Virus record (IMG/VR): IMGVR_UViG_2671181055_000005
DNA length: 12,813 nucleotides
From: a virus
Lineage: Duplodnaviria > Heunggongvirae > Uroviricota > Caudoviricetes
Direction: 5' to 3' (one strand)
Made by a program: the position numbers
Shown: one piece after another, positions 3,001 through 9,000 of the stretch
Position numbering within the stretch: position 1 is the first letter of the stretch
Layout of the letters: the number at the start of each line of letters is the position of its first letter

Positions 3001-6000
3001 AGGTCCTTGTCGAAGCGGTAACGAAACGACTTACTTTTTTCCGCCATCAGGTCATCAAGATGGCGCTGGCAGGCCTGAATCACAAACTGGCAGGCAACAA
3101 TCTTTCCGCGCACGACATCCCGGGCATACTGATTTGCAGCATTTACGTTGGGGTAAGATTTCCGGCTCATGATTCGATAATTTTCAGAAACGGGTTAGTG
3201 GCTTTCTTCTGCCCCGCCAGGCCAATCAGACGCTGGCGGCTGCTGGGGTCGAGTCCGAGCATTGCCCCCGTGCTGCTCATCTCGGACTCCTGTTCTTTTT
3301 TGGCGGTCAGCTCCGGATTTTTGACCCTGCCGCCCATTGCACCGGTGATGGTGTTGCCCTGTATGGCAATATTTTTCACGGCACGTCGCCAGAACTCATA
3401 GGCCACGCACCACCGCTCAAGTACCGCCAGGTCAGTCACGCACAGCAGGCCCTGACCGCAGAGTTCTTTGGTTGTCAGTTGCCACATGATCGTGGCGAGA
3501 GGGAGATCTTCTTCAGCGAACCACTCTGGTGGCTCAACACCTTTGATGGGCGTAAAAACAGGTTCATCTTTGTTCAGGGCTCGCTTGCCGGGGTTTCCGG
3601 CCAGCGCCTTGCGCGCCGTTGGCTTGGGGCGACGCCCGGAACGCCCCGCCGTTCCAGCCATATGCGGCACTCCTGGTTAAATTTCATTTTTCGCGGGTAT
3701 AAAAAAACGATGGGGCGGGCAGTCCGGAAGACGTCAGGTCACAGGGATTTGCCCCGCCCCTCCCTACAAGTGAGAATAATTATCACCGGATTCGTTCGCG
3801 CGCTGTTTTCGCTTTATGGCAGGGCCAGCACAGACTCTGCAGGTTGCTGTCTGCGTCTGTTCCGCCATGCGCTTTCGGGATGATGTGGTCGACGGTTTTC
3901 GCCTCGCTCACCACACCGACACGCAGACACAACTGACACAGACCTTTATCGCGCTTCAGAATACGGGCACGAATCACCGTCCATTTTGAGCCATAGCCAC
4001 GCTGGTGGCGGCTCAGTCCGCGCTGGTGCTGCACCCAGCCTTCACCGCGATGTTTATCGCAGTAACCCGAACTGTCTGTGGTTGTACCTGCACATCCACG
4101 CTTACGGCAGGCACGTGGGATTAGTGATGGCATAAATACCTCATACCCTGCGAAATGTTTACCACGATAAAAAGGCTACTTAATGCACTGAGTGCGGATA
4201 TACTCCTGTGCCCCTTCCAGTTGCATCTGCATCGTCATCAGCCGCTCTCTGAGGGTGAAATAATCCCGTTCAGCGGTGTCTGCCAGTCGGGGGCTGGTTG
4301 CATTATCCACGCCGGAGGCGGTGGTGGCTTCACGCACTGACTGACAGACTGCTTTGATGTGCAACCGACGACGACCAGCGGCAACATCAGCGCGCAGAGT
4401 TTCATTTTCAGCTTTCGCATCAGCTAACTCCTTCGTGTATTTAGCATCGAGTGCATTAACATCACGCTGTCTCTGCTGCATGTCAGTAATGGTTGCGTTC
4501 GCCAGCTTCAGTTCTCTTGCGTTTTTGTCGCGCTGCTCTTTGTAGGTAATGGCGTTATCACGGTAATGATTAACAGCCCATGACAGGCAGACGATGATGC
4601 AGATAACCAGAGCGGAGATAATCGCGGTGACTCTGCTCATTGCTGCCCCCACAAACAGACTTCACGCTCAATCTCACGACGGGTCATCAGCCCTTTCCAT
4701 TGCTTACCGCCAGCATATGTCCAGCGACGTAGCTGGTCACATGCGCCTTTGATATCGCCCTGGTTTATTTTGCGAAGAAGCGTCGATGTTCTGAAATTGC
4801 CAGCGCCCACGTTGTAAACGAACGAGTAAAGAGCGCCGCGCGTTGTTTCCGGTATATCGACTTTGATGTACGGGTTAATTTGTCTGGCGACAGTGGCAAG
4901 GTCTTTATTCAGGAGGGCTTTGCATTCTGCTTCGGTATACGTTTTACCGAGCATGATGTCTTTTCCGGTGTGTCCGTGACATACAGTCCATACACCAATG
5001 ATATCTTTGTATGGTATGTAGCTGACACCTTCCAGACCATCGTTACCACCTGGGCCAGTGATTAACACAGATGCTATAGCAACAGCCCCACCACCAATAG
5101 CAGCTGCAACAGCCTTGCGTAATGATGGCGACATTATTCACCTCTCGCAGCCTTACGCTTGTCTTCTCTTATTTTGAAATACAGATTTGTCAGATAAGTC
5201 AGAAGCCCCAGAAGCAGACTTCCCAGCACACCAATCGCAGCCCACTGTGATGGACTGACCTGATCCAACCACTGCAAAAACCAGTAGCCGGCACTGCCGG
5301 CGGAGGTGCCGTANNNNNNNNNNNNNNNNNNNNNNNNNNNNNNNNNNNNNNNNNNNNNNNNNNNNNNNNNNNNNNNNNNNNNNNNNNNNNNNNNNNNNNN
5401 NNNNNNNNNNNNNNNNNNNNNNNNNNNNNNNNNNNNNNNNNNNNNNNNNNNNNNNNNNNNNNNNNNNNNNNNNNNNNNNNNNNNNNNNNNNNNNNNNNNN
5501 NNNNNNNNNNNNNNNNNNNNNNNNNNNNNNNNNNNNNNNNNNNNNNNNNNNNNNNNNNNNNNNNNNNNNNNNNNNNNNNNNNNNNNNNNNNNNNNNNNNN
5601 NNNNNNNNNNNNNNNNNNNNNNNNGAGTCAGACATTCCCACACAATATTGTGTCAGTGCAAATAACAACCTTCGTCTCAAATCTCGCTGGAGCGGGCAGC
5701 GGGAATCGAACCCGCATCATCAGCTTGGAAGGCTGAGGTAATAGCCATTATACGATGCCCGCATATGGTGCCGACTACCGGAATCGAACTGGTGACCTAC
5801 TGATTACAAGTCAGTTGCTCTGCCTGCTGAGCTAAGTCGGCGCTGGCCCACCACCGAGGACTCGAACCTCGCACCGTCAACTTAGAAGGTTGATGCTCTA
5901 TCCGGATGAGCTAGTGGTGGTTGGTGGCCCTTGCTGGACTTGAACCAGCGACCTGGCGATTATGAGTCGCTCGCTCTGACCAACTGAGCTAAAGGGCCGG

Positions 6001-9000
6001 AGGCAGAATAATAACCATATGTCATCACATCTGCAAACTCATCTGACCACCAGCACGTTTAACGTCCTGTGCCGTTTTTCAGGTATAAAAAAACCCGCTC
6101 ATCGGCGGGTTTAAGCTGTGTGGCGTAGTAACCACTCTTAACAGGATATTCAACTTTTTACGATCGTAAAGTTTTCGGAAAAAATTTTTAAAACCGCATC
6201 AACCGCTCCACCAGTTGCTCTTTACGGGCAACGATCCACCCGTGTTGCTCCAGATAAAATTTAAACCGTTCCAGAGTACATACCATCGCATCGGCGGGTA
6301 CCTTTTCCGTGAACTCAACCTGACCGTGTTTATCGAAGTGGCTCAGTAATGCGCATCCATCATTTTCGATAGATGTGTTTTGTGCCGCTGGTGGCTGTTT
6401 CTGGTTGAAATAACAGTCTTCCAGTTTTTCGAACACTTCCCACGCCTGATCGGTTTCGAGCATTTTGGCGTGACGGGCTGCGCCACGTTCTGTCCAGAGG
6501 ATGAGGGAGCGAACGTTACGGGCAATTTTCACAGAAACTCTTAAAGAGTTTTCGTTCTTCAACTCTCGTAACGCATCACCTTCTATCAGGAAAAAATGTT
6601 TACCTTCTATAAACCGTTCTTTGTTTCGATTGAAATTGTTTGTCAAACGCTGGCGCTCTGTTCCGTACAAATCAGCCAGCAGCTCTGTTGTCATGACAGG
6701 AAGATGGTTATGCGTAAGTGACGGGAGTTTTTCAATAGACGTGCGATTCATAGACATGTCCTTTCGAATATTTTGATTTACCCCTTTTGAGAGGGTGACC
6801 GGGCGCTCAAAACCGTCGAAAGTCGGCGGGCGTATTTCCATTGCTGGTATTGTATTAGCCGCACACCCGGTCATAAACCAAGAATTCTGGACACAAAAAA
6901 ACCACATGGCTATCGGGTGTGGATACCGCTTTCGAGGTGTTTTGAGCACCGCGGGGAAATGTAAACTGCAAACCTGAAACTGTCAACACCGTCAGGTTCC
7001 AATCATCGGGTGGTGAGACGCACAGGGTTGGAACTACCGGGAAACCGACCGGCGAGCTTTTCAGCTCCCCCATGCGCCCCACCATAATTCAGATGTGCGC
7101 GTGCATACGACAATAAAAAACACGCTCGCGGCGTGTGTCTGTCGCGGTCTCTATCCGGGGTTCCAATCCCGACGCCAGATTTTGCTGGCGCGTGAGGAAT
7201 ATAGCCCCGGACAATGTGTCTGGTCAAGCACCTACATAATTCGTTCTACGTATCTGTCCATCTCCAGCCGGATATCAAGCATCATCAACATGCCATCAAT
7301 AACCCCTTCCGCTTTCTGCAGGCGCTTGCCAATACAGGTATCCGAACACCCATGTTTCCGTGCCAGACTCATAAAAGTCATTCCACCTACGTAATAATCC
7401 ACCAGCAAATCGTGCAAATCCTGATTTTTCTTGTTCAACCGGGCCATACAGCCACAAATTATCATTGCATCATCATCAGAACACTGAGGGCGTGATTTCA
7501 CTTTCGACGGAATTAACCCTTTAAAACCAGCAGCGATCGACGCCCAGGATACATCTTCATGAGTGTTTGCAGCCCAAGCCCCCCACCGTTCCATAACCTG
7601 CTGAATATCACGCGCCATCGTTATCACCTGTGATTTCATAAATCTTCACGCCCAGTCGCCCACCAGGAACGAGCTGACCGCGCACAATATTGATTTCATC
7701 AAACTGCTCGTCGTCTATGAGTAGTCCGGCATGCGTCAGCGCATCCAGTGGTGCTTTCAGGATATTGTCCAGGTCACGACGGCGCTTATCCGGTGGCTCT
7801 GCAATAATCTTTATCGCCAGCCTTCCGGACAGGTTTAATTTCAGCCGCTGCTGGCGAACAATTAGCGTCACATCACGGCGATAACGCTCACCAACTTTTG
7901 ATACAAAATATGTGCTGCCACGACGTCGCCAGTAAGTATTCACCGTCGGCGGATAAGGTAAAATAAACTCATGGCGCATCAGCGCAGCACCTCCTGCACC
8001 ATTTTTTCAAACTTTCCAACTTTGGTTTCCAGCTCTGCCACACAATCAACGAGCTCATCCACCGCTTTTTGTGCGCGATGTTTCGCCTGCATCAGTTCCC
8101 TGAGCGCTGGCACCATATCCCGACGAATGGCATCTTTTGTTACACCTGTTTTTTCCAGTTGTTCCGCCTGTCGCAACATTTCCTGCGCGTGTTTACGCAA
8201 TTGTTCAGAGGTAAAAGTCATTGTCTGGTTGTTCAAAAGAAACGCTCCATCTTACTGCTGTCGGTACGTGTATTGCTGTATCTGCGCGGCTGGGGCTGCC
8301 GCATTGGGGTGGAAAGAACCTGTGCGCTTTCCTGGTCCACAGGCAGAAAATGTCCGTTATAAAAACGCCGGTAAATCGTCCCCAGAGAACCGTTACGTTG
8401 TTTCGTGATATTAATTTCTGCTATGCCTGTAGCCTGTGTATCCGGGTTGTACACTTCATCCCTGTAAAGCATCAGAATGATGTCTGCATCCGCCTCTATT
8501 TCTCCGGAATTTTTCAGGTCTGAGTTCATGGGACGTTTATTGGGTCTGGACTCCACACCGCGGGAGAGCTGGCTCAGCGCAATCAACGGAAAACCACCGG
8601 ATTTTGCCAGGCCTTTAAGCCCCTTTGAGATTTCACCCACGGCAAGGTCATGACGCCCCGTGGTTCGGGTTTTTATCAGCCCGAGATAATCAACCACCAC
8701 CAGCGCCGTTTCCGGATGTTTAATCAGATGGTGTTTCGTTGTTGCGCATATCTCATCAATGGTCAGGTTCGCCTGGTCCACCATCCAGATATTGCGCCCG
8801 GTCATCCGCCCCACCCCTTGTGAGAAACGCGCCCAGTCTTCATCTTCAAAGTGAGCCACAGATTTCAGGCGTGATACTGGCATCCCTCCAGCCGCAGACA
8901 CCATACGTTCACCAATCTGGATGTTCGCCATCTCCATGGTGAACAGAAGCACACCATGCCCCTGCTCAGTCACCTTGTCGATGATGTCCAGCGCAAGTTC

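Follow-up and report, generated by a model that had tools for sequence, protein, structure and literature searches.

A four-tRNA cassette in the late region of a lambdoid prophage remnant and its probable role in codon supply

Why a prophage should carry a tightly packed set of four tRNA genes, where these genes came from, and what they might do for phage or host are the questions raised by IMG/VR virus record IMGVR_UViG_2671181055_000005 (Caudoviricetes). The whole stretch of 12,813 nucleotides (nt), hereafter called the window, was searched for tRNA genes using ARAGORN and the Rfam model RF00005, whose gathering score is 29. ARAGORN gave exactly four genes, which lie on the minus strand only, between 5998 and 5688, and all of them score above the Rfam gathering score with E-values of 1e-10 to 1e-14. 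In the 5' to 3' order of the minus strand (CAU, UCU, UGU, and UCC), they are:

5922–5998, minus strand: slot 1, tRNA-Ile2 (CAU), called by ARAGORN, Rfam 70.5 bits
5844–5920, minus strand: slot 2, tRNA-Arg (UCU; AGA/AGG), called by ARAGORN, Rfam 56.4 bits
5766–5841, minus strand: slot 3, tRNA-Thr (UGU; ACA), called by ARAGORN, Rfam 69.8 bits
5688–5762, minus strand: slot 4, tRNA-Gly (UCC; GGA/GGG), called by ARAGORN, Rfam 64.9 bits

The spacers between them are A, GC, and TAT (1, 2, and 3 nt), CCA is encoded at the 3' end of every gene, and all four form perfect cloverleaves with high scores in both programs. An earlier note, made from the sequence alone, had read the same four anticodons, spacers, and CCA ends within 5688–6038; the two methods agree on each anticodon, the sequence bears out the spacers and CCA ends, and the range is right, to which the strand, absent from that note, is added here as minus. 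The array is confirmed to be a real set of four intact tRNA genes. We consider it to be a lambdoid late-region tRNA cassette of the ileZ-argN-argO kind, which probably supplies tRNAs for codons that are rare in the host and common in the prophage.

The identity of each tRNA was examined by alignment to host and phage genes. The CAU tRNA had been left ambiguous between Ile2 and Met. It matches ileY and ileX of K-12 at 71 and 69 of 77 positions, respectively, and ileZ of the Shiga toxin (Stx) phages at 74/77, while the match to metT and metU reaches just 54/78. Its acceptor stem is that of ileY. At positions 4:69 and 5:68 it possesses C4:G69 and C5:G68, as do ileX and ileY, where metT has U:A and A:U; these two are the major TilS identity pairs of E. 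coli (PMC11947777). Identical copies in relatives are labeled tRNA-Ile by the Prokaryotic Genome Annotation Pipeline (PGAP). Because it is nearer to ileY and ileX than to metT, holds the TilS pairs, and bears this PGAP label elsewhere, the sequence evidence resolves the CAU tRNA as tRNA-Ile2 of the ileX/ileY/ileZ class. It is expected to read AUA after lysidine modification, a modification that we infer from this assignment.

The Arg (UCU) gene matches the Lys-type tRNA of phage PhiR47_1 at 65/77, argN of Stx phages (anticodon UCG) at 64/77, and host argU at 58/79. Its body has an unusual C1–G72 acceptor stem, which is common to argN and the PhiR47_1 “Lys(UUU)” tRNA. The anticodon loop CUUCUAA is canonical, and the discriminator is G73. 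In the D loop, AUCCGGAUA, A20 comes after G18 and G19, and C35 is present in the anticodon; A20 and C35 are identity elements for the E. coli arginyl-tRNA synthetase (ArgRS). The tRNA hence carries the ArgRS identity elements, and its acceptance by this enzyme is predicted. The Gly gene is identical to host glyT over 75/75 positions, and the Thr gene matches host thrU at 74/76. The two differences are U to C changes in the D loop (U16C and U20C), at positions that are usual dihydrouridine sites in E. coli tRNAs, and the anticodon arm ACUGA-CUUGUAA-UCAGU is the same as in thrU. Alignment to thrU, glyT, ileX, and argU was the check suggested in the earlier note, and it upholds the view expressed there that Thr and Gly are host-derived copies.

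These alignments also bear on how the cassette was assembled. The host operon is laid out as thrU–8 nt–tyrU–116 nt–glyT–6 nt–thrT–tufB. The window keeps Thr and Gly in the same relative order, whereas tyrU, the 116-nt spacer, thrT, and tufB are absent, and the promoter and context are different. As Thr and Gly stand 3 nt apart in the phage, slots 3 and 4 are captured copies of host thrU and glyT from which tyrU and the 116-nt spacer were lost. Slots 1 and 2 represent an old phage lineage of ileZ and argN scaffolds, with UCU placed in the argN scaffold. Judged from these similarities, the cassette is mosaic, with an ileZ/argN pair of old phage descent and thrU/glyT copies from the host. The Thr–Gly fusion also makes a promoter-like match, TCGGCA-16-TATAAT (10/12; 5774–5747, minus strand), that has the best score of the region. 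Its −10 element is the D-arm of glyT, GTATAATGG, and it is most likely meaningless because transcription would begin within tRNA-Gly.

A candidate sigma70 promoter had been proposed to drive the array, and it was located directly upstream of the first tRNA as follows:

6008–6036, minus strand: sigma70-type tRNA promoter, TTGCAG (6036–6031), 17-nt spacer, TATTAT (6013–6008)

A pyrimidine/GC-rich discriminator of 9 nt (6007–5999) connects it to G1 of the first tRNA. The match in a consensus promoter scan was 9/12 only, which is weak alone, and the case for this promoter rests on its conservation and not on that score. The pattern TTGCR-N18-TATYAT has one occurrence in the window, at 6036–6008, for a chance expectation of 0.03, and one occurrence per locus in the other array-bearing loci. 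A phylogenetic footprint was constructed from 20 distinct 45-nt upstream flanks, which were taken from one Stx2a phage and the 127 loci of a census probed with the phage-specific Thr–3 nt–Gly junction. TTGCA(G/A), exactly 17 variable nt, TAT(T/C)AT, 9 nt, and then the tRNA were found in 18 of these 20 flanks. The information content, evaluated for eight representatives each differing at >6 of the 45 positions, in bits per column, was higher in the hexamers (1.69 for −35 and 1.84 for −10) than in the spacer (0.79) or upstream (0.69). In Sakai, a homologous TTGCAG-17-TATTAT sits between tR' and ileZ2, and a transcription start site (TSS) driving the tRNAs is reported to have been mapped by differential RNA sequencing (dRNA-seq) in the interval containing this homolog (PMC7547250). 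The proposed promoter is thus backed by both the footprint and the Sakai TSS, and sequence conservation supports a dedicated cassette promoter with conserved hexamers, spacing, and distance to the tRNA. It is probably active in the lysogen. A pyrimidine- and GC-rich discriminator is typical of stable-RNA promoters, and by analogy the cassette promoter may be under growth-rate or stringent control.

The array occupies a defined position in the late region. On the minus strand, the window begins with the host gene hchA, IS2, an abrupt prophage start, dnaB, RusA, and the Q antiterminator. After Q come an ImmI-like module, a terminator hairpin, the tRNAs, a run of N, and the 3' part of the holin gene, downstream of which are lysozyme, Rz, HNH, terminase, and portal. 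The elements of late transcription were identified as follows:

7232–7639, minus strand: late antiterminator Q (Q933 type), Pfam PF06530, 2.7e-52
6143–6170, minus strand: pR' homolog TTTACG-16-TATCCT, aligned with the Sakai Sp5 pR' TTTACG-16-TATCAT
6083–6112, minus strand: intrinsic-terminator hairpin AAACCCGCC-GATGAG-CGGGTTT plus T run, just upstream of the tRNA promoter

The window Q and the Q protein of Sp5, the Stx2a prophage of Sakai, share 79% identity. The hairpin at 6112–6083 is the homolog of the pR'-proximal hairpin in Sakai Sp5 and VL40, with a conserved stem and a variable loop, and the pR' homolog and hairpin also align with the VL40 sequence immediately 3' of Q. The pR' assignment in Sakai agrees with the published pR'-to-tR' distance of 258 nt (PMC7547250). 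The tRNAs are located on the late-transcript strand, past the pR'-proximal terminator and ahead of the lysis genes, and the same arrangement was observed in FDAARGOS_944, VL40, RMDEC332, PhiR47_1, and the Stx phages.

This position is similar to that of ileZ-argN-argO in the Stx phages (933W, Sakai Sp5, and Stx2a_F349), which lies after Q, pR', and tR' and before stx or the lysis genes. The likeness had been pointed out as one of location, and it turns out to be more than an analogy since slot 1 is a homolog of ileZ (74/77) and slot 2 shares the argN scaffold (64/77, C1–G72). Both have the promoter architecture TTGCA(G/A)-17-TATTAT-9 nt-tRNA and supply AUA and AGA decoding, and the 1-nt spacer “A” between the first two tRNAs is found in Stx2a_F349 as well. 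Unlike the Stx cluster, the window has UCU in the argN-type scaffold (UCG in argN), no stx, and no argO (best match 46/77), in place of which are Thr (UGU) and Gly (UCC). Its spacers are 1–3 nt versus 9–13 nt in Sakai and F349, and the Stx phages have a terminator directly after argO. On these homologies, the window array is a variant composition of the ileZ-argN-argO cassette lineage. Phage 21, Sf6, ST64T, and SfI, which carry Asn and/or Thr (UGU), are similar in that the tRNAs are downstream of Q and include Thr (UGU), but they have one or two tRNAs where the window has four. The arrays Ile2-Lys(UUU)-Thr-Gly of Escherichia phage PhiR47_1, APEC O1, and many E. coli prophages share the four slots, spacers, promoter architecture, Thr, and Gly with the window, and differ in slot 2, which has the anticodon UUU in an unusual loop, CCUUUAA (C33), and an A51–C63 mismatch.

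The codon usage of the window prophage genes was compared with 14,574 codons of K-12 housekeeping genes by using the Fisher test within each codon family. The frequencies per 1000 codons were as follows:

ATA: 2.9 in K-12 housekeeping genes, 6.7 in window prophage genes
AGA: 0.8 in K-12 housekeeping genes, 5.5 in window prophage genes
AGG: 0.5 in K-12 housekeeping genes, 3.1 in window prophage genes
ACA: 5.2 in K-12 housekeeping genes, 14.5 in window prophage genes
GGA: 7.1 in K-12 housekeeping genes, 10.6 in window prophage genes
GGG: 9.5 in K-12 housekeeping genes, 20.0 in window prophage genes

Each of the six codons is 1.5 to 7 times as frequent in the prophage genes (p < 0.03). CTA, TTA, GTA, GCA, CCA, CAA, and GAA are unenriched or depleted, which indicates that there is no general bias toward A-ending codons. 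Counted gene by gene, the target codons amount to 33–86 per 1000 in the prophage genes versus 14 in the adjacent host hchA, and the same enrichment pattern was obtained for the FDAARGOS_944 prophage and PhiR47_1. The idea that the set may boost the translation of phage or cargo genes is supported by this comparison, in which AUA, AGA/AGG, ACA, and GGA/GGG all exceed their level in K-12 housekeeping genes. Helper plasmids with argU, ileX/ileY, and glyT provide extra tRNAs for AGA/AGG, AUA, and GGA in E. coli expression; they are man-made and also carry leuW and proL, and their likeness to the window array is a functional analogy only. In phage SfI, an ACA bias has been tied to the tRNA-Thr (UGU) downstream of Q (PMC3636060).

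A cassette for codon supply is the reading that we favor, and it is carried by the presence, identity, and homology of the genes, the conservation of the promoter architecture, the late-region position, and the codon bias. In this mechanism, one precursor would be transcribed from the sigma70 promoter 9 nt upstream of the first tRNA. During lytic growth, Q-antiterminated transcription from the pR' homolog may additionally read through the hairpin at 6112–6083 into the tRNAs. RNase P would cut at each tRNA 5' end, and because the spacers are 1–3 nt, this cut should leave an upstream tRNA with just 1–3 extra nt beyond the encoded CCA, which 3' exonucleases may trim. This step is taken from the general processing of E. 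coli and T4 tRNAs. With the mature tRNAs, more decoding capacity would be available for AUA, AGA/AGG, ACA, and GGA/GGG. As the prophage of this genome has lost its early region, transcription from the cassette's own promoter is likely the only route that matters here.

Several points weigh against this reading. Expression, lysidine modification, the processing route, and the translation benefit are inferred, and the Sakai TSS is used here at the resolution of an interval. A terminator of the cassette would be masked by the N run in the window. Regarding codon usage, a housekeeping set as reference makes the contrast larger than one with the genome average would be, rare codons are generally enriched in horizontally acquired DNA, and CGA, TCA, and CCC are likewise enriched in the window genes with no matching tRNA in the array. 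Furthermore, the gene content makes this prophage a remnant whose immunity, integration, and early regions have been lost. A benefit to phage late genes is therefore moot here, and only a host-level effect via the cassette's own promoter could matter. The junction with IS2 is 104 nt upstream of dnaB, and host hchA comes after IS2 (9729–10881 and 10897–11748); judging from relatives, this junction falls inside the helicase-loader gene. The cassette of this remnant is still 100% identical to copies in intact-looking prophages. As for the features that define a moron, an own promoter is supported, and an own terminator, if there is one, would be hidden by the N run that starts 63 nt past tRNA-Gly.

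The distribution of the array was examined in complete E. coli genomes and in the census. Nine complete E. coli genomes carry the 353-nt unit of promoter and four tRNAs with 100% identity; RefSeq already lists its genes there as Ile, Arg, Thr, and Gly, and the neighboring modules differ among these genomes. The Arg (UCU) version is rare, being present in approximately 10 of 5426 complete genomes. A related array, mostly with Lys in slot 2, occurs in a further 601 of the 5426 (at least 80% query cover). The 127 census loci comprise more than 120 viral contigs together with E. coli (three), Shigella flexneri (three), and Citrobacter braakii, and the tRNAs are far more conserved than their flanks. 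The architectures of the census loci are as follows:

Ile2-Lys-Thr-Gly: 54 loci
Ile2-Arg(UCU)-Thr-Gly, the window type: 37 loci
Thr-Gly alone: 21 loci
Odd slot-2 forms and other rare arrangements: remaining 15 loci

The Lys (UUU) type is hence commoner than the window type (54 versus 37 loci). Thr with U16C/U20C accompanies Arg (UCU) in the arrays and was counted in 31 census copies.

The sister arrays exhibit further variation at three of the slots. The slot-2 scaffold with C1–G72, which is not of host type, holds different anticodons by lineage, namely UCU in the window, UCG in Stx argN, and UUU with the C33 loop CCUUUAA, the last accompanied by the A51–C63 mismatch. Rarer forms were called Leu (UAA) or “Stop (UUA)” or were uncallable by ARAGORN; slot-2 examples are L009 3095–3171, L004 2595–2671, and census loci L046, L057, and L101. 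Slot 2 looks like a case of anticodon switching on a single phage tRNA body, as far as the alignments tell. In a minority of Thr (UGU) copies (L002 4329–4404, L010 3270–3345, L035, L100, L113, and L127), the anticodon stem is altered. UCAUC replaces UCAGU in the 3' strand, by which CAG becomes CAU, one CNG motif is lost, and two pairs are broken; in L127, the stem is fully compensated (GAUGA/UCAUC) and free of CNG motifs. Decay was considered for the UCAUC form in VL40 and RMDEC332 and was dropped as an explanation, since the change is possibly of the kind that confers resistance to the nuclease OLD (PMC12445682); this form is not in the window and has no bearing on its array. In slot 4 of RMDEC332 (L010 3349–3420), a glyT-derived gene has the anticodon UAC, is annotated as tRNA-Val, is devoid of CCA, and has lost 1 nt from its 3' acceptor strand. 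It is more probably in decay than a real tRNA-Val.

Other explanations of the array start from the same observations. Since tRNA genes are frequent integration sites of prophages, and the Thr and Gly genes equal or nearly equal those of the host, the array might consist of host tRNA genes marking the attachment site instead of cargo. The array is, however, internal, between Q/pR' and the lysis genes and not at a prophage end, complete phage genomes, PhiR47_1 for example, have it at the corresponding place inside, and host thrU and glyT are located elsewhere in another arrangement. The internal position and the presence in free phage genomes refute the attachment-site explanation, which we regard as having practically no chance of being correct. 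Alternatively, the tRNAs may be a hitch-hiking relic, i.e., neutral passengers of a mobile late-region module with no role here. That the prophage is cut by IS2, that the Arg (UCU) version is rare (~10/5426), and that decay is evident in relatives, as in the mutated Gly slot of RMDEC332 and the rare slot-2 forms uncallable by ARAGORN, are consistent with such a relic. A set of passengers would nevertheless not be expected to include four perfect, high-scoring cloverleaves in the window, tRNAs and promoter hexamers that are conserved while spacers and flanks have diverged, a family spread over 601/5426 E. coli genomes and >120 viral contigs, and a codon bias that fits the four anticodons specifically. 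We therefore consider a neutral relic to be unlikely, though not negligibly so.

Counter-defence is a further possibility, in which phage tRNA copies replace those cut by anticodon-arm nucleases such as P2-OLD, PARIS/AriB, and others. P2-OLD is reported to cleave host tRNA-ThrU (UGU) at paired CNG motifs of the anticodon stem and thereby to kill cells infected by lambda, and it cuts Arg and Lys tRNAs too (PMC12445682). Rescue of the cells is reported for phage tRNA-Thr (UGU), that of the lambdoid phage 21 among them, and its resistance features are altered CNG motifs at nt 28–30 and 40–42 and a shortened anticodon stem (PMC12445682). Lys (UUU)-type slot 2 of the sister arrays would fit this picture as well, as PARIS targets tRNA-Lys and AriB acts on tRNA-Lys (UUU) (PMC11464382), and the few sister arrays with UCAUC Thr, together with L127 with its GAUGA/UCAUC stem, have the kind of change reported for OLD resistance. 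The window copies themselves are different. Whereas the Thr of phage 21 reportedly resists OLD and has a changed anticodon stem (PMC12445682), the window Thr keeps the thrU arm, with both CNG motifs and all five stem pairs, a host-type arm that is shared by 110 of 114 census Thr copies. Extra host ThrU is reported to give little or no protection (PMC12445682). The window Gly is identical to glyT and is therefore no resistant variant. The Ile2 and Arg scaffolds of the window do differ from the host copies; we know of no nuclease specific for Ile2 or Arg (UCU) that such scaffold changes would evade. With a host-type Thr arm and a host-identical Gly, counter-defence is unsupported for the window copies and was rejected as the main role of this array, for which it appears distinctly improbable. 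For the sister arrays with UCAUC or GAUGA/UCAUC stems or a Lys-type slot 2, it is plausible from sequence.

A broader proposal would combine codon supply with counter-defence. The array would then be a spare-tRNA kit serving both, in which the slot-2 anticodon is rewritten by lineage to track the limiting or nuclease-attacked host tRNA, the Thr slot switches between host-type and OLD-resistant arms, and a stringent-type promoter provides expression in the lysogen; the window, with UCU and a host-type Thr, would be one state of this kit, whose parts are exchanged rapidly. We regard it as a long shot.

That lambdoid phages carry tRNA genes downstream of Q was established in the 1990s. The window array is a compositional variant within this well-known class that is annotated already in public genomes; it matters little alone. 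It shows how such cassettes are built, here from an ileZ/argN pair and thrU/glyT copies with tyrU removed between them. The footprint, moreover, defines a dedicated tRNA promoter that is common to the Shiga-toxin phages. A dedicated and conserved promoter implies expression in the lysogen, with a possible effect on the host translation of rare-codon genes, which are often horizontally acquired or virulence genes. The sister variants with Lys-type slot 2 or altered Thr stems provide test cases for phage tRNAs that counter tRNA-cutting defence.

Q and the pR' homolog are parted by approximately 1 kb, where a P1 ImmI-like module is located (7227–6188, minus strand). It consists of a promoter TTGACC-18-TATATT (7227–7198, minus strand), an isrK/c4-a1b1 target (7204–7115) with its own terminator (7136–7120, minus strand), a C4 antisense RNA (7089–7006), the small RNA sRNA-Xcc1 (6872–6789, minus strand), and, as its last part, an ORF6N antirepressor gene that ends at 6188 (minus strand). 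This arrangement can be likened to isrK-anrP of Salmonella Gifsy-1. As the pR' and hairpin sequences directly follow Q in VL40, comparison with that genome indicates that the antirepressor module is inserted between Q and pR'.

The sequence downstream of the tRNAs is interrupted by the N run:

5625–5687, minus strand: 3' flank up to the N run, 100% identical to FDAARGOS_944 and VL40
5314–5624: N run, 311 nt

No terminator is visible within the 63 nt between tRNA-Gly and the N run (5625–5687). A perfect palindrome, CACAATATTGTG, is present at 5657–5636 (minus strand), approximately 40 nt past tRNA-Gly. On both sides, the sequence bordering the N run matches FDAARGOS_944 and VL40 (100% and 98.6%), and, by comparison with relatives, the run takes the place of a non-coding spacer and of 36 nt at the start of the holin gene. 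The earlier note had suggested that it may hide more tRNAs. The corresponding stretch of these near-identical relatives is 652 nt, versus 311 N in the window, and no tRNA was found in it, nor does it contain an annotated or convincing open reading frame. Extra tRNAs within the N run were rejected on this basis, and, as far as the relatives can tell, hidden ones are unlikely. The length of the N run is either arbitrary or reflects a deletion of ~340 nt in this genome. The 652-nt stretch holds terminator-like hairpins, one of which is directly ahead of the holin gene; in FDAARGOS_944, they are located 259 and 613 nt downstream of tRNA-Gly. A long imperfect hairpin of ~95 nt was also observed at 7523–7617 of locus L001, in the stretch that is masked by the N run in the window.

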